A DNA stretch of 64,000 nt from Zestosphaera tikiterensis (GTDB lineage Archaea; Thermoproteota; Thermoprotei_A; Sulfolobales; NBVN01): assembly GCA_003056265.1 (NCBI GenBank), contig NBVN01000004.1, positions 261,587 through 325,586 on the forward strand, written 5' to 3'. Positions 6,124 through 21,437 of the stretch are shown here, in pieces; within the stretch, counting starts at the first letter, position 1, and every line of letters starts with the position of its first letter. The position numbers and the translations under genes are program-made. The notes under the pieces were generated by a model that was given only the letters and a program-made list of their open reading frames with translations, was not told where the DNA came from and made no database searches.

Positions 6124-6933
6124 TTAACTACGGTATGCTTCAATCAACTTACTGAGTATTGCGTCGTCGTAACCCACTAGAAGGCATTCAACCTTACTTA
6201 TGTTTGTTAACGGTATGTTATTTACGGGCGTTCCATCGCAAAGCGTTGCTTTAGCGTTTAAAGCCTCAGCTATCTTAAGTGCTGCCGCAACGTCAACGTT
6301 CCTTAACTTAGCTCTTATGTCTACGAACGCTTCAGCCCTACCTAAGCCTACGTAGATAATATCTAAAGCCGCACTACCTAGAGAACGTAGCGCCGCCCTA
6401 CCCCCTCTAAACCTCCAGTACTTAGGCACTATGCTGTAAGCCTCGGGAGTTTCGAAATACCCTAAAAGCACGTTCGGAGGTTTAACCCTCCTCTCGGGCT
6501 TAACCCCATCGATTAAAACCCCCTCACCCTTAACGTATTCGTATGTGGTTTTCCTAAACACGTCTACAACTACGGCGTAGGTTACGTCGTTAAGCGTTAC
6601 ACCCTCCTCATACGGTGCTACAGCTATAGACACGGAAACCCAAGGAATTGAAGCTTCATAATTTACCGAACCGTCAACGGGGTCAACAACGAAAACCCAC
6701 CTCCAACCCTCACCACATGTTTTAACAACGCCTGACTCCTCACTAACTATAAGTAAGCACTCCCCCAACCCCCTCAAAACACCGAATATTATGTCCTCAG
6801 CCTCCTTATCGAAAGCCTTAGTGAAATCTCCTGAAGCGTTAGGTTTAAACACAGCTGAAGACCTAACACCACTCGTTAAATAATCTGAAACCTTCAAAGC
6901 AGCCTCCCTAACAACCGACCACACCTTAAACAC
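6124..6933 (-). CDS. inositol monophosphatase / fructose-1,6-bisphosphatase family protein
   Basis: Metal-site motifs EESG and VVDPVDGSVNY, followed by WVSVSIAV, match the IMPase fold signature. Confidence 0.8.
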   Translation of the reverse strand: MFKVWSVVREAALKVSDYLTSGVRSSAVFKPNASGDFTKAFDKEAEDIIFGVLRGLGECLLIVSEESGVVKTCGEGWRWVFVVDPVDGSVNYEASIPWVSVSIAVAPYEEGVTLNDVTYAVVVDVFRKTTYEYVKGEGVLIDGVKPERRVKPPNVLLGYFETPEAYSIVPKYWRFRGGRAALRSLGSAALDIIYVGLGRAEAFVDIRAKLRNVDVAAALKIAEALNAKATLCDGTPVNNIPLTNISKVECLLVGYDDAILSKLIEAYRS

Positions 6934-7138: not shown

Positions 7139-8776
7139 GTGCATGTTTTGAGTTTTAAAGTTAGGTTGAAGTCCCTCTTTAGAAGAAGTGAGGATAAGGG
7201 TTTAAAGGGGGGTTTAGAGGGTTCCTCTGAAGTTGCTGTTGTGATGCCTGAGGTTAGACCTGCTCACGAACTCTTAAGTGTTAAGAGAGGTTTTAAAGTT
7301 GTTGAGTCTTACCCGATTCACGAACCCTTCGCATATATAAACATCGTTGAGGAGGAAGCAACCGGCAAGCTGTTTTACGAGGTTTACGAGATTTCATTAA
7401 CTGAGGAGGAGAGGAGGATCTACGAGTCTTTAAAGGAGCACATCATATGGGAGTTGAAGCCCGTAGCTTCTTTAAACGTTGACGCAAGGAATGAAATCTT
7501 AAAAACAGCTAGGAATGTGATGAGGGAGTTTCAACTTCGCTTCACTAGAACTCCATCGCTTTCGTGGAGTAAGCTAGCTTACTACATAGAGAAGGATCTA
7601 CTCGGCTACGGAGTTCTTGAGCCTGTATTTAGGGATAGGCATATAGAAGACATCTCGTGTAATGGGCCTGGAAAGCCTGTCTACGTATGGCATAGGAAGT
7701 ACGAGTCCCTACCCACCAACATAGTGTTTAAAAACGAGTTGGAGCTCGATGAATACGTGCTTAAGTTAGCTCATATGGCAGGTAAACACATATCCGTTGC
7801 CTACCCAGTTCTCGACGCCATACTTCCGGGAGGGCATCGAGTAGCCGCGACATTCACTAAGGAAGTCTCCACCTCAGGCTCTACATTCACCATAAGGAAG
7901 TTCAGCGAGTCCCCAATAACCATAGCCGACATGATAAGCTACGGAACTATATCCTCAGACTTAGCGGCTTACTTCTGGTTGGCTATGGATTATAAGATGA
8001 CGGGCCTCATACTCGGCGTGACGGGCGCTGGTAAGACATCAACGTTAAACGCCTTAGCCACTTTATTAAGGCCCACATATAAAGTCGTAACTATTGAGGA
8101 CACGCCTGAGTTGAGGCTACCCCTCGAGAATTGGGTGCAGTTGGTTTCCAGGCCTTCATACCTAGCCGGAGGTGTTGGTGAGGTCTCCCTATACCACTTA
8201 GTTAGGGTGTCGCTTAGGTATAGACCGGACGTAATCGTAGTCGGTGAGGTTAGGGGTGAGGAGGCTTACGTACTATTTCAAGCTATAGCTACAGGGCATT
8301 CAGGACTCACTACCTTACACGCGGAGAGCATTGACGCAGCTGTGAAGAGGCTTACCTCAAAACCTATGGATATTCCGGAGTCCTACATACCTTTAATTAA
8401 CTTCGCCTTAGTGATTAAGAGAGTATCCCTCGTTGATGAGAGGGGTAGGGTCAGACCCGCTAGAAAAATAACTAACGTTTGGGAGATCAGAGACTTCGGG
8501 GAGTATGAGGAGGTTGCTAGGTGGGACCCCGCTAGGAATAGGTTCGAGCTTAAGTTAGGGAGGAGTTTAGTCCTTCAGAAGATTTCAGACTTGACTGGAA
8601 AGCCTGTCGAGGCTTTAATGGATGAGTTAGCTTTAAGGAAAGCAGTTCTTGAGTGGTTAGTGGCTTCTAAGAAGACTGCCTATAGGGATGTAGCGACTTA
8701 CATTCAGAAGTACTACCTAAACCCGAAGAAGACTTTAGAGGAGTTGGGTGTGGCTCATGCCTTCACTACGGCGTAG
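7139..8776 (+). CDS. type II/IV secretion-family ATPase (archaeal type IV pilus/archaellum assembly ATPase, FlaI/UpsE/AapE-like)
   Basis: Walker A GVTGAGKTSTLNAL, Walker B/Asp box VIVVGEVRGEE and His box TGHSGLTTLHA. Confidence 0.9.
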   Translation: MHVLSFKVRLKSLFRRSEDKGLKGGLEGSSEVAVVMPEVRPAHELLSVKRGFKVVESYPIHEPFAYINIVEEEATGKLFYEVYEISLTEEERRIYESLKEHIIWELKPVASLNVDARNEILKTARNVMREFQLRFTRTPSLSWSKLAYYIEKDLLGYGVLEPVFRDRHIEDISCNGPGKPVYVWHRKYESLPTNIVFKNELELDEYVLKLAHMAGKHISVAYPVLDAILPGGHRVAATFTKEVSTSGSTFTIRKFSESPITIADMISYGTISSDLAAYFWLAMDYKMTGLILGVTGAGKTSTLNALATLLRPTYKVVTIEDTPELRLPLENWVQLVSRPSYLAGGVGEVSLYHLVRVSLRYRPDVIVVGEVRGEEAYVLFQAIATGHSGLTTLHAESIDAAVKRLTSKPMDIPESYIPLINFALVIKRVSLVDERGRVRPARKITNVWEIRDFGEYEEVARWDPARNRFELKLGRSLVLQKISDLTGKPVEALMDELALRKAVLEWLVASKKTAYRDVATYIQKYYLNPKKTLEELGVAHAFTTA

Positions 8777-10589: not shown

Positions 10590-10595
10590 GCGTGT

Positions 10596-10973
10596 TTAAT
10601 AACGAACTCCCAAACCCTCAAGCAATTCTTTAAAATCTTTTGAATTGTTCACAGCTTTCCGAACGGCTTCATCCAGTAAATCCAGCCTATTCAACCTAAT
10701 CAACACAGTCTTAACTAAATACGTTACTACGAAAAGCGCTACATCCTCAATCCCATAATGTTCTTTAACAGTCTTATAGAACTCCACCGAATCATAGAAG
10801 AACATCTGAAGAGCGTTTAAACCATGCCTAGACTTAAACAAGTAGTCGAGGGTCTGTAGGTAGCCGGGGAAAGCCCTCGTAAACCGTTCCTTGACGTAAT
10901 CGATTAAATCGGAAGCTTCTATACTCACCCCCCACGGAAGAACGCATAGCGATAACCGATTAATTATTGTCAT
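10596..10973 (-). CDS. hypothetical protein
   Basis: ORF track only, with host-like composition. Confidence 0.4.
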   Translation of the reverse strand: MTIINRLSLCVLPWGVSIEASDLIDYVKERFTRAFPGYLQTLDYLFKSRHGLNALQMFFYDSVEFYKTVKEHYGIEDVALFVVTYLVKTVLIRLNRLDLLDEAVRKAVNNSKDFKELLEGLGVRY

Positions 10974-11095
10974 GGAGGTTTAAAAGATTAACGCTTTTAA
11001 AACAAACGTAAAGGATAAACAAACGTTGAAGGTTGGGAAGAATATCTTAAAGAAGTCTTCGGTAATAAAGCAAGAGGGCTTCCTCCCCAGCTTCT

Positions 11096-11422
11096 TTAAG
11101 TTTTGAGGTTTTTCAACTCTTCAGAAACTTCCCTAACTTTACTTAAGTCTACAGTAATTACGTACTCATTCTTTAAAGCTCTCTTTAAAGATTCAGCGAA
11201 AGACCTACCTAAACCTTCTAAACACTCTAAAGAATTGAAGCATTCATTCAACGAATTCACGTAAGTTAAAGACTCAACCCAAACTAAAGAACCTAAAACC
11301 TCCTCAGAATCCATAGGTTCATAACAAAGAAGACCTGAATAACGGCAAACCTCCCTCAAAACATCAACCAAACCATTACGCAAGCCAGAATCAACAAACA
11401 CAACATAACCCACACAAAACAC
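11096..11422 (-). CDS. hypothetical protein
   Basis: ORF track only. Confidence 0.4.
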   Translation of the reverse strand: MFCVGYVVFVDSGLRNGLVDVLREVCRYSGLLCYEPMDSEEVLGSLVWVESLTYVNSLNECFNSLECLEGLGRSFAESLKRALKNEYVITVDLSKVREVSEELKNLKT

Positions 11423-11440
11423 CCTTCCACTACTACACTA

Positions 11441-11677
11441 AACACTAACACTAATATATGCAGGTAAAACTTTAAAAACTTTAAACACACTAAATTTGAC
11501 TACGTCAAACTCTAGAGAAATCCCGTCACGAAGCCAATCTTTTACTATAATATCGAATATCGTGAGTAGTTCTACTAAGAGTTCCTTAAAGACGTCTAGA
11601 ACTTTCTTTAAACTAACTCTTAAGTAAGCCTTAGCTTCCCCTCTTTCGCTGGAGTTAATGCCTACTCTTACATGTGA
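11441..11677 (-). pseudogene. open frame of 79 codons with no start codon; possible gene remnant at the left edge of the island
   Basis: My own translation of the minus strand gives SHVRVGINSSERGEAKAYLRVSLKKVLDVFKELLVELLTIFDIIVKDWLRDGISLEFDVVKFSVFKVFKVLPAYISVSV. There is no ATG/GTG/TTG until near the end. An open frame this long is unlikely by chance in AT-rich DNA. Confidence 0.3.
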
Positions 11678-11747
11678 TTAGATTTTCTAGTTTGATAAGC
11701 CTATCTTAGAAAGTCTAGTTGGGTTAGGTTTTCTAATTCCTCTGTGA

Positions 11748-11761
11748 GTGTAAATTTACAC
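11748..11761. repeat. perfect 14-bp palindrome GTGTAAATTTACAC (copy 1)
   Basis: Read directly from the sequence. An identical copy lies at 17957-17970, a 16-bp variant AGAGTAAATTTACTCT at 17818-17833, and a half-site in the left arm at about 13536-13543. Confidence 0.9.
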
Positions 11762-11834
11762 TTAAGTATGGATTAACTACACCACAAGAAAGTAATAACA
11801 TGTTGTTACGGGTAGGAGTGGGAGAAAAAGAACC

Positions 11835-12767
11835 TTATCTACCGAATCTGCCGAGGATGTTGGTGTGTATGTTACTCTCAATGTTGTAGAGCTCGAACCT
11901 GAACTCTGTATTGCTGAACTCTATTACCGAGTATATCTTAACCACCAAGTGAGTGGTCTCATTGTTCTTTATGTGCGATACCCACCAGTCGCTTAGCTTG
12001 GCTATATCTATCTTTGTTGCGAATGGGAGCACGGTGTCGGCTTTAGCCTTCAGTATTACTGGGTTATATGTAGTTCCCTCGCCTATCTTTATGTTGTTGA
12101 CATAGATCTCGTAATCAATCCTAGTCACAGGTATAGGCACCGCCTGGTGGTTGTATATTGTAGCCCTATGGTTAACCTCTATTACGCTAGGGGATACAGA
12201 ACCCCATATAGACTCTAGGCTCTTCAAAGTCAGCTTGACAGGTCCAACGCTCATGTCTCTCGGCTCATTAGTGTTAAGTCCAGCCAACAGGTTCGTCTCA
12301 AGCTTTGACGAGAACTCGAATGGATAGGCGAATTCCACGGCCTTCAGGTCGAATAATATATTACCAGTTATCTTTACAGTGCTTACCTCATGCTGGTTAA
12401 TGTGTGATGCCAGTCCCTCAGGTATCTTCCTGCTATTGATCAGGCTCTTCAGGACTATAGCTGACTCTGTTTTTGCTGGGAGGCTTATATTAGTGCTTGA
12501 CCCAGATACTATTTTTATATCGTTCAAGTACATGTCGAAAGCTACGCTTTTCACCGGGATAGAGAATGGATTTGGATTATACACCACAATACTTGTTACC
12601 ACTTCCGTGGTGTCGCTAGTGACTGTCCCCCATGAACTAGCAATACTTTTAACCTCAGGCTTCATAGCCTCGCTCGGGGGCTTAGCACCATAATAAAAGT
12701 AGTAGCCTACTCCTAGGGCTACAACAATTAACACGAGGATTAAGAGGACTAACACGCCCTTACTCAT
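11835..12767 (-). CDS. membrane-anchored protein with tandem LEA_2/WHy (LEA14-like) domains
   Basis: An N-terminal TM helix is followed by two repeats of the pattern VxVxNPNPFxIPVxxxxYxxYxNxxxIxxG (VVYNPNPFSIPVKSVAFDMYLNDIKIVSG and TIYNHQAVPIPVTRIDYEIYVNNIKIGEG). Confidence 0.7.
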   Translation of the reverse strand: MSKGVLVLLILVLIVVALGVGYYFYYGAKPPSEAMKPEVKSIASSWGTVTSDTTEVVTSIVVYNPNPFSIPVKSVAFDMYLNDIKIVSGSSTNISLPAKTESAIVLKSLINSRKIPEGLASHINQHEVSTVKITGNILFDLKAVEFAYPFEFSSKLETNLLAGLNTNEPRDMSVGPVKLTLKSLESIWGSVSPSVIEVNHRATIYNHQAVPIPVTRIDYEIYVNNIKIGEGTTYNPVILKAKADTVLPFATKIDIAKLSDWWVSHIKNNETTHLVVKIYSVIEFSNTEFRFELYNIESNIHTNILGRFGR

Positions 12768-12982
12768 GTTTTATCCTCCAATAATCTATAGGAGTTCCCA
12801 TATATTTTGTCAACCAACTGAACAGGATATAAGGGACTCCTGCTGTAAATAGGTTAATAAGATAGGGCAAACCTCCTACTACCCTTAGTAAATTAGCTTT
12901 CCTAAAGGGTTATCGAGTTCTGTGAGCACTTTTAAGCTTTGATACCTGAATGTCGGGTAAAACAGAACTTCAAGTTAGCTTC

Positions 12983-12998
12983 GATAAGCTTATCAAAG
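12983..12998. repeat. 16-bp direct repeat GATAAGCTTATCAAAG (copy 1; copy 2 at 13547-13562)
   Basis: Read directly. The two identical copies lie 564 bp apart and bracket the left arm. Each contains the palindrome GATAAGCTTATC. Confidence 0.9.
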
Positions 12999-13043
12999 AA
13001 GTGAAGGTGTCTCCATTTATAGCATTATCCATTTGAGAGAACT

Positions 13044-13562
13044 ACTCAGAGTAATACTCAGAGTAATGAGATTTCCTACGTAGAGCAATTAAAAAGTATT
13101 CACCTAAGACAATTAGAAAATGAAGAATTTTCAGGCCTCATGGAGATTGGGAATTCGTCAAATAAAAAAATTACGGAATGGGATAATGGGAAATTTAGGT
13201 GGGATAATGGGAAGGTGAATGAAATTCACGCATCGATTATCCCGCTGTTGATTATCCCATTATCCCGGGATATCCCGGGAAGACCACGCGTAGCTTCCCA
13301 TTATCCCATTATCCCACTCTCAAAAACAATATGGGATCCCTAGCGGGATAAACGGGAAAACTGGGAAACCCCGATCAAACAGCATGAGTTTTACATACTA
13401 CTTCATCCTACTAGAAACTAACCCTAGAAACTAGGATCCTCTTCAAACATCCTCCCTAATCCTCCCTAACACACTCTTCAACCAACCCTAACGTAAACCT
13501 AGAACGTTTAATCGGGGCTTGCTCTTTAACTGCGGATTTACACTCTGATAAGCTTATCAAAG
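13044..13562. repeat. left arm of a diverged inverted repeat of about 0.5 kb (non-coding, iteron-rich)
   Basis: By-eye alignment shows it is colinear with the reverse complement of 17945-18431. Shared blocks run from ACTCAGAGTAATACTCAGAGTA at the outer end to ATTTACAC..GAT.AGCT at the inner end. A core of about 100 bp is roughly 85-90% identical. Confidence 0.85.
13179..13370. repeat. iteron array, motif GGGATAA/TTATCCC (at least 8 exact copies on both strands), centred on the palindrome CCCGGGATATCCCGGG (13264-13279)
   Basis: Forward copies start at 13180, 13201 and 13345. Reverse copies start at 13237, 13252, 13260, 13301 and 13309. Degenerate copies also occur. Confidence 0.85.
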
Positions 13563-13579
13563 CTAAGTTTTCTAAGGAC

Positions 13580-13697
13580 TTGAAGATCTTAACAGAGATT
13601 ATCAATCAGAGAAATAGCTAGGAAGGTAGGGCTTAGTAAATCAGCAGTTCATAAAAGACTAGGGAAAATACTTAAAAAGGAAGGGATACACGTTTAA
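13580..13697 (+). pseudogene. frameshifted remnant of an Lrp/AsnC-type HTH
   Basis: Frame 2 gives KDLKILTEIINQRNS*. Frame 3 gives QRLSIREIARKVGLSKSAVHKRLGKILKKEGIHV*. Joined, they match the Lrp/AsnC N-terminal HTH pattern. There is no intact start and a 1-nt frame break near 13590. Confidence 0.35.
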
Positions 13698-13765
13698 GTA
13701 ACGATTAACCACGCTGCTTACAGATTAACTTAAGTAGTTAGTTTTACGGGGATGTTTTAGGTATA

Positions 13766-13793
13766 TCTTTTATATTCTAGGGCAATAACCTAG
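13766..13793 (+). promoter_or_regulatory. candidate TATA box plus small inverted repeat (CTAGG-N7-CCTAG) upstream of the AbrB-like gene
   Basis: TTTTATATT lies about 25 nt upstream of the TTG at 13798, which fits a leaderless transcript. The inverted repeat at 13777-13793 is flanked by TATATT on both sides. Confidence 0.3.
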
Positions 13794-13797
13794 TATA

Positions 13798-13992
13798 TTG
13801 GGGGATGCCTTGGGTTGTGTTGATTTAAGTAGGTGTGTTAAGGTTAAGATATTAAAGTTAAGGAAGAAGCAGAAGGGGGTTGACGTTAGAATACCTAAGG
13901 AAGTCGTGGAGAAGATGAATTTAAAAGGCAAGGAGAAGGTTGAGGTATACGTAGATTATGAAAACGGACTCATAATATATAAACCGTTTTAA
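13798..13992 (+). CDS. AbrB/SpoVT/MazE-type swapped-hairpin DNA-binding protein
   Basis: VRIPKEVVEKMNLKGKEKVEVYVDYENGLIIYKP matches the SpoVT-AbrB domain pattern (v.IPkev.e.lgl..Gd.v.v....g.i.i.p). Confidence 0.7.
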   Translation: MGDALGCVDLSRCVKVKILKLRKKQKGVDVRIPKEVVEKMNLKGKEKVEVYVDYENGLIIYKPF

Positions 13993-13993
13993 G

Positions 13994-14200
13994 GTGGGAA
14001 ACATGGTTAAATGCCCTTACTGTGGCTACGAATCAAACATAAACGACTTTAAACTTCTTAGAAATCCATGGAGATATAGGTTCTACGAGGTTAGGAGGCT
14101 TGAATGCCCTAAATGCCGTAAAGTATTCAACTACTACTACGAAGTAACATCTGAAGGTAAGGAAGTTAAGTTCATGATTAGAGTAAAGCCTAGAGGGTGA
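13994..14200 (+). CDS. small zinc-ribbon protein
   Basis: Two CxxC pairs (CPYC ... CPKC). The start lies 1 nt after the AbrB-like stop, which suggests translational coupling. Confidence 0.6.
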   Translation: MGNMVKCPYCGYESNINDFKLLRNPWRYRFYEVRRLECPKCRKVFNYYYEVTSEGKEVKFMIRVKPRG

Positions 14201-14296
14201 TGAAGCGTCCGAGTTTGTGATTGGGATGAGGTTTGGGGCTGTGAGTATGTTAAAGGTGATGATGAACAGATAAGAAAGGCTTTGAAGGTGTGAAAG

Positions 14297-15841
14297 TTGA
14301 GTAAGGTAGGTCTGGAATTTACTCAAATAAGCTTTGCTTCAGAGGTAAAGGATTGGATAAATGAAATCATTAAAAACGAAAGATTAAGGTTTGAATACGC
14401 TGATATTGAAATAAAGGACCCACGTCGGAAAAGGGCTGATGTAATCCTATGGGAGAAGAGGAGAGAGAAGAAACCAGCACTTTTAATTGAGATATGGGAT
14501 CCAAGCACCCCTCCTTGGGAGGATGCGTTAGATTCCGCCTTAGCTAAAGCATGGAAAAACAATATCCCTTATTTTGTTGTATGGAATTTAACGCACTTCT
14601 ACTGTTGGGATACTTTTAAAGAGGGTGAAGTGATAGATAAGCTTTGGTGGCCTCATGCAGGCGTAAGCGAAGTAGTAACTAAGGCTTTAACGTATGAAGA
14701 CGCTATTTTAAAGTATAGTGAAGGGATTAAAAACTACATTAGAAATTTCCTTAAGGAGTTTGAAGAGGTTTATTACGGTATTAAGGCTAAGCCTTTACTT
14801 GGGATTGATGAAAGATTCATCTATAGGTTAAGAGGCACGATTCACGCACTATCGATACCTGTTTTTGAGGAGTTAAAGAAGAGAACGCAGGAAGACATCC
14901 GGTTTAAGAAGGAGCTTATCAAATACTTTAAGGAACAAGGATGGACGTTTAAAGGAACGGACGAGGATTTCGAAAGAGTAGCAAGGCAATACATCTACTT
15001 ACTTACCAACAAATTACTTTTCTACAACGTTCTCCGTACAATCCCCTCATATAGAGAACTACCTAAGATCGAGATCCCCAAGGATGTCACAACCGGTGAA
15101 AAGCTAAGGGATATACTAAATTCTTACTTTGAACGTGCCTTTAAGACAACCGGAAATTACGAGACAATCCTACTTACAGATTTCTTAGACTCCATAATCC
15201 CGCCGGATGGTGTGGTTGAAGGTCTTAAGGAATTTATCCGTAAGATAAGCGATTACGACTTTTCAAAGATTACATATGAAATCTTAGGAAACATATTTCA
15301 AAGGCTAATACCGGAGGAGGAAAGGCATAAACTCGGTCAGTACTTCACGAGGTCTGATGTAGTTGACCTCATAGTAGGTTTCTGTGTAAGAAATGCCGAC
15401 GATAAAGTGTTGGATGGTAGTTGTGGTGCGGGGACGTTTCTAGTGCGGTCTTACGTGAGGAAAAAGCTACTTAACCCTAGTAAAAAGCATAAGGAGCTTA
15501 TTAAGGAACTATTCGGGATTGACATCGCGAAGTTCCCAGCTCATCTCTCAATCATAAACTTGGCTAGTAGAAACCTATCAGAGGTTGAGAACTACCCTAA
15601 CATCATTCATAAGGATTTCTTCGACGTAAGCCCAAGTGGGAAATATCCCTTAACTGATGTAAAGCATAATGAAGTAAAGCATAAAGTTGAAACTTTAGGT
15701 AAGAAAGAGTTCTTTATTGAAATACCAGAGTCTTTTGATGCTGTAGTGATGAATCCACCATACACTAGGCAGGAGGAATTGGAGGACATACTTGAGGAAG
15801 AAAGAGCAAAGCGTATGATGTATGCATTAAGGATTGGATAG
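14297..15841 (+). pseudogene. type IIG restriction-modification enzyme, fragment 1 of 3 (N-terminal nuclease-like region plus the N6-adenine methyltransferase core)
   Basis: Methyltransferase motifs GQYFTRSDVVDLIV, motif I VLDGSCGAGTFLV and motif IV VVMNPPYTRQEE. The reading frame breaks near 15796-15810, and the protein continues in frame 1. Confidence 0.8.
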
Positions 15842-15954
15842 ACCTTAGAAGCGATAAATACAGGAAAAACAACCCTCCAAAGCTTAGCAAGAGGTCAAGT
15901 ATCTACGTTTACTTCTTCATCCACGGAGCTAGGTTCTTAAAAGAAGGCGGTAGG

Positions 15955-16737
15955 TTGGGGTTGATTACTTCAAACTCTTGGCTGGACGTTGATTATGGCG
16001 GAGACTTGCAAAGATTCTTTCTTGAAAACTTCAAGATAATCGCTGTTATTGAAAGTAAGGTAGAGAGGTGGTTTGAAGACGCCGATATCAACACAGCGAT
16101 AACGATACTTGAGAGATGTAGCAATTCAGAAGAAAGAAATAACAACTTAGTCAAATTCGTCCAGCTTAAGAAACCTCTATCTGAATTCATACCTCCAACA
16201 AACGATGAAAACGAAAGGTGGAGAAACGTTGATAAATTAGTTAACTTCATAGAATCTAAAAACCAATACTTCGAAGATGAAAACATAAGGATATTTGTAA
16301 AGAAGCAGGAGGAGCTATGGGAAGAAGGTTACGATGAAGAGAAAAAAGAATACGTTGGAACAAAGTGGGGCAAATATATTAGGGCTCCAGAAATTTTTTA
16401 CAAGGTCTTGACTACCAAAAAAGATAAATTTGTGCCTCTTAAGAAACTAGCAAGAATCGGTCGAGGTTTAAGGACAGGTTTCAATTCCTTCTTTTACTTA
16501 AGTGCTCAGAAAGCTGAAAAACTCGGAATTATGAACTTTACACGTCCACTAATTAAATCTCCAAAGGATAGTGAGTACACTCTGTTAAGTAAAGCTAAAT
16601 TGCGAAATAGAATTTTTACAGTAAATGAGGAATTAAATTCTCTTATAAGGACAAAAGCTTATGACTATATAAAAATGGGCGAGAGAAAAGGGGTGCCTCA
16701 AAGACGAGGTAAAAAAAGAAAAATGGTGGTCCTTTGA
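15955..16737 (+). pseudogene. type IIG restriction-modification enzyme, fragment 2 of 3
   Basis: Frame 1 is already open from 15796 (..DLRSDKYRKNNPPKLSKRSSIYVYFFIHGARFLKEGGRLGLITSNSWLDVDYG), which is the expected continuation after NPPY. The fragment ends at a frameshift in the A7 run at 16711-16717. Confidence 0.8.
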
Positions 16738-16777
16738 GGAGGAATGTATAAGGGCTGATTTATTTATTCCAATCCAA

Positions 16778-17707
16778 TTGTGGGAAACATATAAAATATT
16801 TCTTAATGATACAAAAGAACACATACTGTTTGATCAGCAATTGAGCGGTCTTAAATTTAAGGATTTTAAGACAGCAAAGCTTGTTTGTGCAGTATTAACC
16901 TCTACCCTAGGCAACTTATTCTTGGAGATTGTAGGAAGAAGTCAGCTTGGTCAGGGGTCATTACAACTAGCGACTATAGATCTCCATAGCCTTCCTTGCT
17001 TGATTATAGCAGAGGAAAAGATAATAGAAAAAATTTTCAAGGTTTTTGAAAAACTATGTGAAAGAAAGATTTTAACTATCTATGAAGAGATCGGTGCAAG
17101 TTCGCCAGAAGGAGTTTCCCTAAATAAAGTAAAGCCTGATAGAAGGGAATTAGATAAAATCATAATGGGTGAAATCTTAGGCTTAACTGAGGAAGAGCAG
17201 TTAGAGGTTTATAGAGCAGTTGTGGATCTTGTTAGGTCGAGGCTTGAAAGAGCTAAAAGCGTTCAAAAGAAGAAGGTTAAGGAGCTGAATGTTGACGATC
17301 TTGTGGATTCTGTTTTAAAAGAATTAGAGGAAGTTCACGGTATAAAGGCTAAAGAATTCCCGGAAGAGTACATAGGGAGGTGTGAGTATAAAGTTGTTGA
17401 AGTTCCAAAGGGGTCTGAAGTTGAGGTTGGTTATGATTTAAGAGGTCCGTACGTTCGAATAGATAATGAAAAGGTTAGATGTTCTTCAATTTACGAAGCA
17501 AGGTTCATAGGATATGCTGTTTTAGCTGGTAAGACCAAGATAATGGTACCTAAAGATGAAAACATATTGAAAAAAGCTGTAGAAGAAAGAAGGAAGTTCC
17601 TAGAGGAAGCAAGGATGAAGATAGAGGAATTTATTAATGAAACGATAACGGATAAAAAGCTAAGAGAGGATGTAAAGTTTAAAGCATTTAAGAAGCTAGG
17701 CATGTAA
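16778..17707 (+). pseudogene. type IIG restriction-modification enzyme, fragment 3 of 3 (C-terminal target-recognition region)
   Basis: Frame 2 is open from 16673 and reads ..KKEKWWSFEEECIRADLFIPIQLWETYKIF.., continuing fragment 2 across the A-run. Confidence 0.75.
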
Positions 17708-17817
17708 CACTATTTATGAGAACCCTAGACGCTATAAAGTTTTCTAATTAAGAGCATATATGTGAATACCTGCAAATCTCATAAAGAGGGAAGACTTTAA
17801 AAACATTATCACTATAG

Positions 17818-17833
17818 AGAGTAAATTTACTCT
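17818..17833. repeat. 16-bp palindrome AGAGTAAATTTACTCT (variant of the GTGTAAATTTACAC family)
   Basis: Read directly from the sequence. Confidence 0.85.
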
Positions 17834-17944
17834 TAAAACACATTCCAACCTACACTAAAACCTCAGAAAAGCTAATTAAAATAAAAAACTAGATTTTCAG
17901 AGTTTATCAAGAACTGAAAATTCACTCAACCAGCTTTCTTAGTT

Positions 17945-18431
17945 AAGCTCATCAAAGTGTAAATTTACACTCAAGAACAAGCCCCGACTAAACACTCCAG
18001 GTCTGCATTAGGGTTAGTTGGGGAGGATGTTAGGGAGGATTAGGGAGGATGTTTGAGGAGGATCTAGTTTTCGAGATTAGCTTTCTAGCAGGATGAAGCA
18101 GTATGTAAAACTCATGCTGTTTGATCGGTTTTGTCCCGGTGTGTCCCACCGTCCACGCGTCTGTCCCAAGCTGTTTTAGAAAGTGGGACAGTGGGACAAT
18201 GGGACACCACGCGTGGTGTCCCGGGACAATGGGACAATCGCCGCGTGAATTTCTTTCGCTGTCCCATTGTCCCAATCAAATGTCTCATTTGTCCCAAACT
18301 AAAAGATTTTCAATTCACGAATTCGCGGTTTCCATGAGGTTCGAACGGCTTTCAGCATTTAATTGCCTTTGCCGAATGCTTTTTAATTGTCCAATGTTCA
18401 TATATATTGTACTCTGAGTATTACTCTGAGT
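17945..18431. repeat. right arm of the diverged inverted repeat (reverse orientation relative to 13044-13562)
   Basis: See the left arm. It contains the palindrome GTGTAAATTTACAC (17957-17970), the shared core (about 18021-18128) and the outer-end sequence GTACTCTGAGTATTACTCTGAGT (18409-18431). Confidence 0.85.
18132..18296. repeat. iteron array, motif GGGACA(A)/(T)TGTCCC (12 copies on both strands), centred on the 22-bp palindrome GGGACACCACGCGTGGTGTCCC (18201-18222)
   Basis: Copies start at 18132, 18142, 18172, 18185, 18193, 18201, 18217, 18223, 18231, 18260, 18268 and 18290. No GGGATAA copy occurs in this array. Confidence 0.85.
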
Positions 18432-18474
18432 GTGCGGTTTAATCATGCTTATTAATTCAGATATGTTAAGGTAG

Positions 18475-18789
18475 TTGGTGTTAAGAGTGAGAGGCGAGGG
18501 AAAGACAACCATCGAGGTATCGCTTGAGACTAGGGAACTGCTTAGGAGGGTCTCCCAGAGGGTTGGGATGACTTACGACGAGGTTCTTAAGATGCTCCTA
18601 GAATCATTCGAAAATCTGCTGAATTGCAGAGTTAGGGTTGATGAGGTCGTAGGCGACGTTATCTTGGTGTGCGACGTCGGTGAGGAGGAGCCTGAGGAGA
18701 TAAGCATAGACAGGAGGGAGTATAGAAGGCTTAGGAAGGTTTTGAAGTTCCTACTGAAGCCTAAGGAATCGCTCCACCCTACCTACTAG
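18475..18789 (+). CDS. putative ribbon-helix-helix (CopG/Arc-like) DNA-binding protein
   Basis: The N-terminus TIEVSLETRELLRRVSQRVGMTYDEVLKMLLE fits a strand-helix-helix pattern. Composition is host-like. Confidence 0.5.
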   Translation: MVLRVRGEGKTTIEVSLETRELLRRVSQRVGMTYDEVLKMLLESFENLLNCRVRVDEVVGDVILVCDVGEEEPEEISIDRREYRRLRKVLKFLLKPKESLHPTY

Positions 18790-19202
18790 AAAACTGGATG
18801 GGTTGAAAGTTTTACTTTCTAAGCAGCAGGTGGGATTCGTGCTGTTTGGTTGTGTCTTTTAAAGTGTTTTTCAATTATCTGTGGGCGGATACGCTAGGGT
18901 TGATCTTGATGATCGGATAATGTTACCAATGAAGATTAAGTTATGCGTGGCTTGTTTTGTTTTCCTATATTGCCTATAGCGGTTTTGTGGGGGTATTTTC
19001 TTAACGATAGATGGTGTTGTCTTACGGATTTATTAACTTTTCCTTACTTTACTTGCCCTAGTTGAAGATGAGGAGGTTTTAGTTTTTCAAACTTGATTTA
19101 TGGTAGGTTTAAGTCTTAAAGGAGGTGATGGGTTACTTACGTTATTACGTTATGGAGTGTTTATTAGCTTTATTTAAAGATAATATTATGGTAGTGGCGT
19201 AA

Positions 19203-19796
19203 GTGATGGTGTTCATGTATAACATACGTGGGGGGCAGGCGAACTTATTTGTGGTAGTTATGTTGGTAGGTCTTGTTTTAGTTCTTGGTGTAAGTCTTGC
19301 GGGTTATTTCTCTACCTACGTAGCTAGCGTTAGTTCTGAAAGCAGTCTTAAAAACGCAATACAGTATGAGATAGCTAATACGGTCGTATATAAGGAGTTC
19401 GATAGCGGTACGGCTGTATGGTTGGGTTTGATAAGGATAGATGGGTCTAGCACTACATACTACATGCTCGTTATAAACACCTCCTCCTGCGTATGGCAGA
19501 GGATCTCCGAAGAGAATATCGTGAGCAACCTACTAAGCAACGGTTTAGAGGGTGTTAGGGCTGGAAGATCCGTAGATTTAAACAGCGTGTATATATTAGA
19601 TCCAGACGGAAACCACATCCCCATAAAGACATACTATAGGGGGTCATCACCTATAACGATATATGAAATCTTCGTTGAAGCGGGCGGTAAGCCTAAACTC
19701 ATAGGACCGATACCGCATGGGGGAGGGTGTGTTGAGGTCGTGTTTTTAACCCTCGCAAACAATAACTATTATGAGGTAGGTAAGGTTTATGTATAG
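19203..19796 (+). CDS. pilin-like protein with a class III (type IV prepilin-like) signal peptide
   Basis: The N-terminus ..NIRGGQANLFVVVMLVGLVLVLGV has a basic residue plus Gly, followed by a hydrophobic helix. An ATG at 19218 is a plausible start. Confidence 0.6.
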   Translation: MMVFMYNIRGGQANLFVVVMLVGLVLVLGVSLAGYFSTYVASVSSESSLKNAIQYEIANTVVYKEFDSGTAVWLGLIRIDGSSTTYYMLVINTSSCVWQRISEENIVSNLLSNGLEGVRAGRSVDLNSVYILDPDGNHIPIKTYYRGSSPITIYEIFVEAGGKPKLIGPIPHGGGCVEVVFLTLANNNYYEVGKVYV

Positions 19797-20970
19797 AGTA
19801 AAACCTTCAAGAGGTCAGGCGGAGATAATAGGTGCTACCATAGCTTTAGGGTTGCTAGTCCTAGCTATAGCGTCTATGTTAGCGATAATGCAGAGAACAT
19901 CAGCAACATCAACAACAAACTTCGCAAAAAGAGTAAACTTCGAGAATGAAAGACTTTCAGAGAAGCTAAGCGTTACATACAACTCAACAAGTGGGGAATG
20001 CATCCTAAGAAACTACGGCTCACTAGACACGGTAATCATAAGAATATGGAACAACAACCAACACTACGACAGTAAATACGGCGATCACAACCTTCCAATA
20101 GTTTTAAAACCTAACGAAGAAGAAAGATTTACCTTCAGCGAAACACCACAATACATAGTTACGTCAAGAGGAAACGTAATACCGTTTAAAAACATGTGTG
20201 AAGAATTAAAACAACGTCTAACAACCCCCCCATCTGTTGGCGAAAGCTTTATAAAGTCTGAGGATGTATTGACGGGAGAAGCGAATTTTAAACCAACAAA
20301 AGATAGAGCCATAGTATGCTCTATTGAGATTGGTAATACAAGACCCACGTGTTATGTAGCATATAACTTCACTAATTACGGTAAAATATGGCGTCGATAC
20401 AATCCTGTTAACGGTTGGGAAAGTAACATTAACGCTAGACTTACTTCCGACACCGACCGTGATGGTGTTAACGAACTAACGCTTGTAGACGATGCTTGGA
20501 ATGAGATCAATTTTACAAGAGGTCAGAGCCCTACTATAAGGGTAACGTTCGTTAATTCTACGATTATAGATGACGATACAGACGTTATCTACGTTACGTA
20601 TAGACTTGCCGTTAATGCTATAGTAAGTAACGCTGCTGCACCGTTCGGGTTTAGTTTAAGTAGTTTTGTAGAATTAACGACAACCAATACTGGTGCGACA
20701 TTCCCAGCTGCGGTTAGCTTTATCTCTATACCTAGGTCTGAAAAAGTAGGGGGTTCTTATAACGTAATTGCTATCCTTGAAGCAAGTGTTGCCATACCGA
20801 GGAAGGCATATTCGTCGTTAAGTGGTTTATTACAGCCCGGGATCTATAATTTAACCATAACAGTTTTGATTAATAATCCACAACAAGGTTCTGCGGATTT
20901 TGCTAAGGCTGTACGTCTTGAGAGTGTAACGATAACGGGTGCTGAAATAAAATGGTATGAAAAGATATAG
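19789..20970 (+). CDS. large pilin-like / pilus-associated protein with a class III signal peptide
   Basis: MYRVKPSRGQAEIIGATIALGLLVLAI is a typical PibD-type processing site (RG|QAE). The gene overlaps the upstream pilin-like gene. Confidence 0.6.
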   Translation: MYRVKPSRGQAEIIGATIALGLLVLAIASMLAIMQRTSATSTTNFAKRVNFENERLSEKLSVTYNSTSGECILRNYGSLDTVIIRIWNNNQHYDSKYGDHNLPIVLKPNEEERFTFSETPQYIVTSRGNVIPFKNMCEELKQRLTTPPSVGESFIKSEDVLTGEANFKPTKDRAIVCSIEIGNTRPTCYVAYNFTNYGKIWRRYNPVNGWESNINARLTSDTDRDGVNELTLVDDAWNEINFTRGQSPTIRVTFVNSTIIDDDTDVIYVTYRLAVNAIVSNAAAPFGFSLSSFVELTTTNTGATFPAAVSFISIPRSEKVGGSYNVIAILEASVAIPRKAYSSLSGLLQPGIYNLTITVLINNPQQGSADFAKAVRLESVTITGAEIKWYEKI

Positions 20971-21437
20971 CTTAGAACTAGTAGTTTTCACATTCATCTT
21001 TAAATTAAATGGCTTAAATGTTGTTAGGTTTTTAGTAGCGTTTGTTTTAACGCCTTCAGCGGTTTAATATCGTATATTTCCTTCAATAATCTTAATATTA
21101 AAGCTTTGTTAAGCACTACCTATATTTAATGACTTGTTAATAATACGTAAATTCTTACTAAAAACATCCTCAGCTAATAATTACTTAATTTTCACGATTT
21201 CCCCTAGGTTTAAACATGCTTTATTTGAAGTTTTACGTAGTGTATGTAGTGAGTTTATGTTATTTGCTGTGAATGCATTAAGTAAGAAAGCAAGGTAGTT
21301 AAGAATATGGGAACACAGTCCTCGTAAGGTGATGTAAGTTCTTAAAGTTAAAGCTATGTGATCATGAAGTTTTAAGTTTATTAACAGTAGTGTTTATAAA
21401 GGAGTGCGATACATTATATTATTGGAGGTAATTAAAT

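Follow-up and report, generated by a model that had tools for sequence, protein, structure and literature searches.

A regulator-linked non-coding element with concerted switching of short units in the archaeon Zestosphaera tikiterensis

We analysed a 64-kb stretch of the Zestosphaera tikiterensis genome (contig NBVN01000004.1, positions 261,587 to 325,586; the window), in which two ~0.5-kb sequences, the arms, lie in inverted orientation around a group of small genes and a restriction-modification (R-M) gene. The arm is an undescribed non-coding element. It carries an array of short units that are uniform inside one arm and different between arms, and these units switch in concert between alleles of one chromosomal site. 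An earlier note on this DNA had taken the arms for the two ends of one 5.4-kb cassette. We observed that elsewhere the arm is single and always lies beside a small regulator-like gene, o104. The structural and evolutionary evidence supports well that the window contains two modules whose inner ends face each other and flank a cargo spot. From these features we infer how the arm may work.

Two diverged arms and their relatives

A formal local alignment of the left arm (13044-13562, +) with the right arm (18431-17938, −) reached a score of 325, compared to 21.2 ± 2.2 (maximum 30) in 200 shuffles. It contained 387 matches, 95 mismatches and 49 gap columns, corresponding to 72.9% identity with gaps counted and 80.3% with gaps ignored. 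The earlier note had described the arms by eye as inverted, diverged repeats of about 0.5 kb with 70-75% identity and had proposed this alignment as a check. The alignment confirmed both statements with highly significant similarity and gave exact boundaries. The limits given by eye were broadly right; the right arm begins at 17938, not 17945, and homology between the left arm and a related locus (L022, below) extends past 13562 to ~13585. In a sensitive blastn search of the 64-kb window, the sole match of either arm was the other arm (E = 9e-72).

As the earlier note had held, the arms are non-coding. In six full-length arms, all six frames were interrupted by at least four stops each; the L017 arm had no open reading frame (ORF) longer than 48 codons. 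A hidden conserved ORF was rejected because there are stops in all frames and the unit changes themselves create stop codons. We found no tRNA and no Rfam family in the window, and no GC-skew turn at the arms.

Further copies were reached only by walking from homologues of o104 and fetching their contigs. The comparison loci come from metagenomes of Zestosphaera-like archaea: L015, L016, L017, L019 (identical to L020), L021 and the more distant L022. Each carried one full or contig-truncated arm, with the outer end ~45-55 bp upstream of the o104 start, and no gene other than o104 was linked to an arm throughout. No arm was seen on the contigs of Zestosphaera sp. relatives without o104, and syntenic conservation of the arms in these relatives was rejected on that ground.

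Exact 20-22-mers of the arm core, together with degenerate block patterns, gave only four chance matches in GTDB genomes (Acidoferrales), a single chance match in JGI metagenome contigs and none in IMG/VR. Blastn of the arm against plasmids and phages gave no match. Nothing true was found by tblastn of o104 against plasmids and phages, or by an IMG/VR scan with a protein pattern of the regulator family. Against Rfam, also at a permissive threshold, the arms gave only chance miRNA-like matches (E >= 0.8). The absence of matches in Rfam and in the plasmid, phage and viral-contig collections agrees with the earlier remark that no element of this kind had been described.

Anatomy of the arm

From outer to inner end, the arm consists of a dyad pair, an AT-rich block, an iteron domain, a core and an inner end. 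The dyad pair comprises two 9-bp dyads (ACTCAGAGT) at 12-bp spacing and adjoins the conserved o104 promoter region on its upstream side. It forms the outer end of the left arm (13044-13065, +) and of the right arm (18410-18431, −) and is a putative operator. The 22-nt outer block named in the earlier note, ACTCAGAGTAATACTCAGAGTA, was recovered by a repeat finder and was 100% conserved. Next to it, the AT-rich domain of ~95 bp (left, 13066-13158, +; right, 18317-18431 with the dyads, −) contains the invariant blocks CAATTAAAAAG, CCTCATGGA and GAATTCGT, all present as read by eye.

The iteron domain, likewise present in both arms as reported, spans 160-235 bp and holds 10-20 short units at 8-bp spacing in both orientations. 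The left domain (13159-13370, +) has 19 units, and the right domain (18129-18316, −) includes a perfect 22-nt palindrome, GGGACACCACGCGTGGTGTCCC. From the outer side, two forward pairs are followed by an invariant GAAATTCACG, reverse units, a variable central palindrome around ACGCGT, further reverse units, the spacer CTTTCTAAAACAGCTT and three forward units. Arm alignments showed that the domain is expanded in L017 and that L015 has no central palindrome. In L022 (6340-6400), the segment GTTCCAAGCTGTTTTAGAAAGTGGAAC is the reverse complement of the matching segment in all other arms and is bordered by a 15-nt perfect inverted repeat, which points to a small inversion inside the array.

The core (left, 13371-13495, +; right, 18004-18128, −) is 125 bp long, C-rich and G-poor. 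It is 81-90% identical across all arms, a level that matches the o104 coding sequence (83-89%). The conserved core of ~100 bp noticed earlier measured 156 nt at 83% identity between the window arms, or 88% across the 125-nt core proper. The G-rich strand of the core (18004-18060, +; 13440-13495, −) matches the canonical G-quadruplex pattern, with several TTAGGG and GGGAGG motifs, and the C-rich strand contains repeated CCTCC motifs that resemble the 3' end of 16S rRNA.

At the inner end there is a T-rich tract, followed in the window arms and L022 by palindrome B (AGTGTAAATTTACACT) and palindrome A (CTTTGATAAGCTTATCAAAG). Both inner blocks of the earlier description, TCGGGGCTTG and ATTTACAC with GAT.AGCT, were found as claimed. 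The left inner end (13496-13585, +) comprises the T-rich tract, a 35-bp terminal repeat (13526-13560) made of a degenerate B and palindrome A (13543-13562), and ~22 bp common to L022. The right inner end (17938-18003, −) comprises palindrome A (17938-17957), palindrome B (17956-17971), the terminal repeat (17940-17974) and the T-rich tract.

Concerted switching of the units

We observed four unit types: GGGAC in the right arm and L015, GGAAC in L016 and L022, GAAAC in L017, and GGGAT/GGGAA in the left arm, L019 and L021. The right arm contained 12 GGGAC and no GGGAT; the left arm contained 12 GGGAT and 7 GGGAA, and no GGGAC. Unit positions are conserved between arms, and therefore the same 10-20 sites have changed together. 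Units without a possible pairing partner switched along with the rest. Elsewhere in the window GGGAC and GGGAT occur at the expected frequency, for which reason we rejected clustered restriction sites and genome-avoided words as explanations of the units.

The switching is seen at a fixed place in the chromosome. The flanks of L016, L019 and L021 are 88-95% identical to those of the window, yet their unit types differ from that of the right arm. In L019 even the serine hydroxymethyltransferase fragment is ~99% identical to the window's, yet the unit type differs. At a second site, the neighbouring 359-amino acid (aa) gene of L015 and L017 shares 93% amino-acid identity, but the units are GGGAC and GAAAC, respectively. 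Two unit types also coexist in one genome, as in the two window arms. The iteron domain of the left arm is 91% identical to the L019 type, compared to 74% to the right arm.

Two modules with inner ends facing

L022 contains a 35-nt terminal inverted repeat (86%; 6134-6168 and 7982-8016), composed of palindrome A, the linker AACAGAG and palindrome B; the arm, o104 and a 233-aa gene lie between its two copies. Both window arms terminate in this sequence on the inner side (13526-13560, −; 17940-17974, +), which is the cassette side. This position speaks against the reading of the arms as cassette ends, and it places the AbrB, zinc-ribbon and R-M genes outside both modules.

Palindrome A occurs in the window at 12979, 13543 and 17938, and weakly at 11690. 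In other loci it directly follows o104 (L015, L017), lies ~0.8 kb after o104 (L019, L021) or ends a degenerate arm of L015. It was absent from ~160 kb of other DNA examined. Its ATAA/TTAT arms are like those of dif, but its centre is 2 bp, and we judged the likeness to a Xer/dif-like site superficial. An integron-like array with palindrome A between cassettes was rejected, as there were no A sites between the defence genes of L015.

Judged from its sequence, the right module is intact, with arm and o104 extending from 17938 to at least 19041. The left module (~11690-13585) is a decayed copy that has lost o104, which likewise speaks against two equivalent cassette ends. On the outer side of the left arm there is a putative o104 promoter remnant (12999-13043, −) with a TATA-like CTATAAAT. 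It is followed by a remnant of post-o104 DNA (12890-12998, −), which comprises an extra copy of inner palindrome A (12979-12998), ~54 bp, and a 34-nt block (12892-12925) that is 91% identical to the DNA following o104 in L015 and L017. Because only the ~45-bp promoter remnant separates the arm from the post-gene flank, the ~330-bp o104 of this module has been deleted. A LEA_2-domain gene (310 aa, PF03168; 11835-12767, −) sits where the cargo gene of L022 does and is a candidate cargo gene of the left module. Beyond it, a degenerate third copy of the terminal palindromes (11690-11765; A-like GTTTGATAAGCCTATCTTAG at 11690-11709, perfect B AGTGTAAATTTACACT at 11747-11762) is a possible outer end, and its match to the terminal repeat at 13526-13560 is partial. 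A degenerate extra palindrome B was also found at 17802-17836 (AGAGTAAATTTACTCT at 17818-17833).

The module occurs in at least three chromosomal neighbourhoods: a pilus locus (right module of the window, L016, L019, L021), a locus with the 359-aa and succinate dehydrogenase genes (L015, L017) and a DUF3100 locus (L022). A second, degenerate arm in L015 (11618-11823; core and palindrome A, no units) is inverted and lies 1.3 kb downstream of the regulator gene. Its geometry is opposite to that in the window: it encloses the regulator gene and two orphan genes (124 and 79 aa) rather than a cargo cassette.

In L022 (654-1655), a spacer of 65 nt separates a tRNA-Thr gene from the 287-aa SSV-type integrase fragment (PF16795) that follows it, beside a pyruvate kinase gene. 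The arm module lies 4.5 kb from it. The tRNA-Thr gene with an SSV-type integrase is the signature of an integrated element. It hints at a mobile origin, although it is no proof that the module is part of this element.

The arm-adjacent gene o104

The conserved promoter region and o104 occupy 18432-18789 (+), with the gene at 18475-18789 and the start at 18475 or 18487 (100-104 aa). Homologues have 100-105 aa, and the window's o104 shares 99% identity with a Z. tikiterensis protein. The predicted secondary structure (beta, 10-15; alpha, 17-30; alpha, 34-49) is consistent with a ribbon-helix-helix-like N-terminus, although the structural model has a low mean predicted local distance difference test score (pLDDT 52) and the assignment found no support in Pfam, PDB or Foldseek.

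The o104 of L022 has diverged to 61%, and its predicted DNA-reading strand is TTVGIRKE. The outer dyads of L022 are also swapped for a different, still dyad-symmetric sequence. This single data point, in which strand and dyads have both changed, suggests that o104 may bind the outer dyads as its operator. Between arms of the four unit types, by contrast, this strand (TTIEVSLE) hardly varies, which makes it unlikely that o104 reads the units. We found no protein whose sequence tracks unit type. The AbrB protein of the window was rejected as reader: it has few homologues, and in L016 the segment homologous to its gene is part of a 109-aa ORF at a distance of 2.2 kb from the arm.

Downstream of o104, conserved non-coding DNA (18790-19041, +) is 91-94% identical to L016, L019 and L021. 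Within it, a 28-nt element (18821-18848) resembles the core start (18096-18123; 75%), and in L022 7054-7096 resembles the core start at 6291-6333 (43 nt, 81%). In both the window and L022, this core-start-like direct repeat, ~725-765 bp apart, brackets the iteron domain, the outer domain and o104.

A proposed double-stranded array read in trans

We see about an even chance that the arm is the ~0.5-kb control region of a small module and acts as a double-stranded, multi-site, allele-specific array that is read in trans. The module would consist of the arm and o104, sometimes with one cargo gene, and its best-preserved form would be bounded by the 35-bp terminal inverted repeat. The arm would work as double-stranded DNA. 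The small protein o104 would bind the two outer-end dyads beside its own promoter, and the 10-20 units, with their 8-bp spacing and both orientations, would form an array on which a second DNA-binding factor, allele-specific and supplied in trans, can land. The arm would thereby be a specificity-determining site, like plasmid iteron, centromere and incompatibility regions. The inverted pair in the window would be a by-product of neighbouring modules and not the working ends of a transposon or virus.

On balance we favour double-stranded DNA over RNA, with an RNA gene as a serious rival. The organism grows near 80 °C. At this temperature, the predicted stability of the iteron hairpin ranged from −5.9 (L016) and −8.8 (L017) to −28 kcal/mol (L022), a 4-5 fold spread between arms, and the GC content of the domain ranged from 0.32 to 0.51. 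Such variation argues against selection for a fold.

Several observations weigh against the array. Besides the low-confidence fold of o104, the near-invariance of its strand and the failure to find a protein that tracks unit type, no replication, partition or transposition gene was linked to any arm. The 125-bp core is non-repetitive and strand-asymmetric, which suits RNA better than a protein-binding array, and in 7/7 arms the o104-divergent strand of the iteron domain gives the slightly better fold. Unit types differ by transitions only. The concerted change could come from repeat homogenisation and not from selection, given the internal inversion of the L022 array; homogenisation by template switching could contribute under either the DNA or the RNA view. 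As for the module boundaries, the window contains no outer terminal repeat for the right module, palindromes A and B are missing from the inner ends of the L015 and L017 arms, and no target-site duplication was seen at the L022 module.

Alternative explanations

With clearly lower probability, the arm encodes a structured non-coding RNA of ~400 nt, whose transcription would run from the outer to the inner end and thus away from o104. Its 5' part would fold into two small hairpins and the inverted units into a long one, followed by an unpaired C-rich tail with several CCUCC motifs (anti-Shine-Dalgarno-like) and a T-rich terminator; in every arm, a T-rich tract does come after the core. The folding potential of the iteron domain is strong (z = −6.7 and −3.9), with the lower minimum free energy on the o104-divergent strand in all seven arms. 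Closing pairs of C-G, U-G and U-A occur in the hairpin at alignment columns 85-97, and the two most conserved outer blocks, UCAUGGA and UUCGUGA, pair only by way of two G-U pairs and hence on this strand only. The core is as conserved as o104, even where o104 has diverged to 61%, and transitions between unit types would also suit an RNA.

Covariation analysis of eight related sequences gave double changes in five pairs, most of them located in the dyad operator or at one closing pair. The covariation was essentially confined to unit-against-unit helices, in which it is automatic, and to palindromes, which are equally DNA sites. Hairpins predicted in the core were broken by mismatches. Paired and unpaired units switched in concert, and both unit copy number and the orientation of an internal segment vary (L017, L015, L022). 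GAAAC and GGAAC arms would barely be folded at 80-90 °C, which is unexpected for a structural RNA of a hyperthermophile. We found no convincing archaeal TATA box at a conserved position, and the arms had no Rfam match even at a permissive threshold.

We consider it improbable that the arm is a long upstream regulatory region of a resident o104 that controls type IV pilus genes, with sites for host regulators, no mobility and the left copy a segmental duplication. The right module, L016, L019 and L021 do share one chromosomal place, between pilus-assembly and pilin genes, with the closely similar flanks and serine hydroxymethyltransferase fragment described above, and the outer end does carry the o104 promoter and dyad operator. 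However, the module also lies in the unrelated L015/L017 and L022 neighbourhoods, and the close relatives L008 and L009 have the pilus genes and no arm. The terminal inverted repeats of L022 and the presence of two unit types in one genome also speak against a resident regulator. A local duplication is disfavoured by the iteron domain of the left arm, which is closer to the L019 type than to the right arm.

Another account, which we rate as quite improbable, makes the arm a specificity-switching array read by the protein of another mobile element, such as the initiator or partition protein of a plasmid or virus. The module would then be a helper-dependent satellite or a decoy; as a decoy, the chromosomal arm would titrate the protein of an invader and give immunity by iteron titration. 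In the window and L015 the arm adjoins variable genes, including R-M genes. An arms race of this kind would cause all units of an arm to switch together while the linked regulator is unchanged.

Least probable, and very unlikely in our judgement, are arms that serve as working terminal inverted repeats of a mobile or invertible 5.4-kb cassette whose enzyme is encoded elsewhere. The inverted arms bracket the AbrB, zinc-ribbon and R-M genes exactly, R-M and small toxin-antitoxin-like cargo is typical of mobile islands, and L022 shows an inversion between short inverted units within its arm. Short-read contigs also break inside the arms: two ends of contigs L005, L006 and L007 (run SRR17771679) lie at ~13399 and ~18007. 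These ends are at or beside 28-29-nt exact stretches common to both arms, so that we regard the breaks as an assembler effect, uninformative on rearrangement; a third end (~18717) lies ~290 bp past the right arm. Arms that are 73% identical and differ in unit type are poor substrates for a common recombinase or for homologous inversion. No direct repeat of the kind that a target-site duplication would leave flanks 13044 and 18431. The single arms tied to o104 in other loci, the opposite geometry of the second L015 arm, the terminal repeats on the cassette side and the decay of the left module all point the same way. The earlier suggestion of a composite element survives as a fair description of the layout, two modules flanking cargo, but there is no evidence of moving or inverting as a unit.

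Comparison with known systems

In function, the nearest analogues of the arm are iteron origins and the short-repeat arrays to which ribbon-helix-helix proteins bind in plasmids. Ribbon-helix-helix proteins bind centromere or operator arrays such as ParG with parH/OF (TP228), omega with heptad arrays (pSM19035) and ParR with parC (R1). As in these plasmids, the arm is a non-coding region with a small gene, possibly of the ribbon-helix-helix type, immediately beside it. Upstream of the promoter of that gene lie direct and inverted repeats that are very short (4-11 bp cores, 7-11 bp spacing), and the repeat sequence differs from one plasmid to the next. Unlike these systems, the arm loci have no ParA or ParM partner, o104 does not co-vary with the units and its fold is a prediction, the context is an archaeal chromosome, and there is an extra non-repetitive core of 125 bp. 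Iteron plasmid origins resemble the arm in their identical short units that define a specificity type, the adjoining AT-rich block and the concerted differences. They differ in unit size and spacing (17-22 bp and ~22 bp, compared to 5 bp and 8 bp in the arm) and in the mixed orientation and dyad symmetry of the arm units. No initiator (Rep-like) gene was found in any locus, and we saw no evidence of replication.

Non-autonomous archaeal elements with terminal inverted repeats, namely miniature inverted-repeat transposable elements and gene-carrying elements, have been described in Sulfolobus. The module shares with them the 35-bp terminal inverted repeats (L022), the lack of an internal transposase, several genomic contexts and a deletion derivative (the left module). 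It differs in having no target-site duplication, a terminal repeat made of two palindromes, no known transposase with matching ends and a very large conserved internal non-coding region. Of the features of a composite transposon, inner terminal repeats are present, but there was no transposase in either window copy or in any fetched locus, and no target-site duplication. An invertible DNA switch lacks its invertase gene between or beside the arms; the earlier note had likewise seen no transposase, integrase, invertase or polymerase there, and we found none.

The earlier comparison to the terminal repeats of linear archaeal viruses and plasmids (Rudiviridae, Ampullaviridae) fits the length of ~0.5 kb, the inversion and the internal short repeats. 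It fails on identity (73%, compared to near-100%), on gene content (no virus genes) and on database searches (no IMG/VR or phage matches); in addition, chromosomal DNA continues on both sides and the arm occurs in single copies elsewhere. Archaeal chromosomal origins can carry the ucm motif ATTATACAAAC beside ORB/mini-ORB boxes (PMC12141716). The arm is like such an origin in being an intergenic region of ~0.5 kb with inverted repeats and an AT-rich stretch, and unlike one in having two unit types in one genome. An origin was rejected, since the arms had no ORB or ucm match, no orc1/cdc6 or whiP gene lay nearby and the GC skew did not turn.

The cargo spot and the surrounding pilus locus

Three genes lie between the modules. 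The first is a small AbrB/MazE-type gene (13798-13992, +; PF04014, 1e-8). It is followed by a small zinc-ribbon gene (13994-14200, +) with two homologues beside restriction genes in L015 (176-594 and 1030-2088), one after another zinc-ribbon gene and one after an HSDR_N nuclease gene; from these positions, the zinc-ribbon protein seems to travel with restriction genes. The third is a type IIG (Eco57I-like) R-M gene (14297-17707, +) split into three ORFs of 514, 260 and 309 aa in frames 2, 1 and 2. On the independent short-read contig L007 the gene is called in these three pieces as well, so that the split is not an assembly error, and the gene is probably a pseudogene. The inner side of the arm adjoins variable genes elsewhere too, such as the 359-aa gene in L015 and L017 and, in L016, the segment homologous to the AbrB gene of the window; at a greater distance on this side, L015 has restriction or BREX-type genes (Eco57I-like, HSDR_N and BrxL). 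The inner side of the arms thus looks like a place of cargo accumulation.

Compared to the relatives L008 and L009, in which two small pilin genes directly follow the platform gene without an arm, the window has ~10.8 kb of extra DNA (10590-21437) between the end of the platform gene (T2SSF, 10589) and a pilin gene (21438). This segment is a hypervariable island inside a type IV pilus locus. At the place of its two pilin-like genes (19203-19796 and 19789-20970), L016 and L021 have an allelic gene for a membrane protein of 91-94 aa. Around 19041-21357, homologous DNA and an A-like palindrome are also found in L019, and both flanks are ~88-95% identical. The serine hydroxymethyltransferase of the window is 83-94% identical to Zestosphaera proteins.

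Implications

To our knowledge, few plasmids, viruses and regulatory DNA elements are known from hyperthermophilic Desulfurococcales. The arm adds a non-coding element of 0.5 kb that is conserved like a protein gene, has sub-domains and is tied to an orphan regulator family. It also cautions against taking every long inverted repeat that surrounds a defence cassette as the mark of a mobile unit. If the arm is instead an RNA, it would be a new large archaeal RNA family. If a factor in trans reads the units, the four types would be ready-made specificity variants with which to find it. The interest rests on the fact that the DNA element and the protein family linked to it are both orphans, and on the concerted unit switching, a natural case in which 10-20 fixed sites carry a different 5-mer in each allele, even at the same site in one species.

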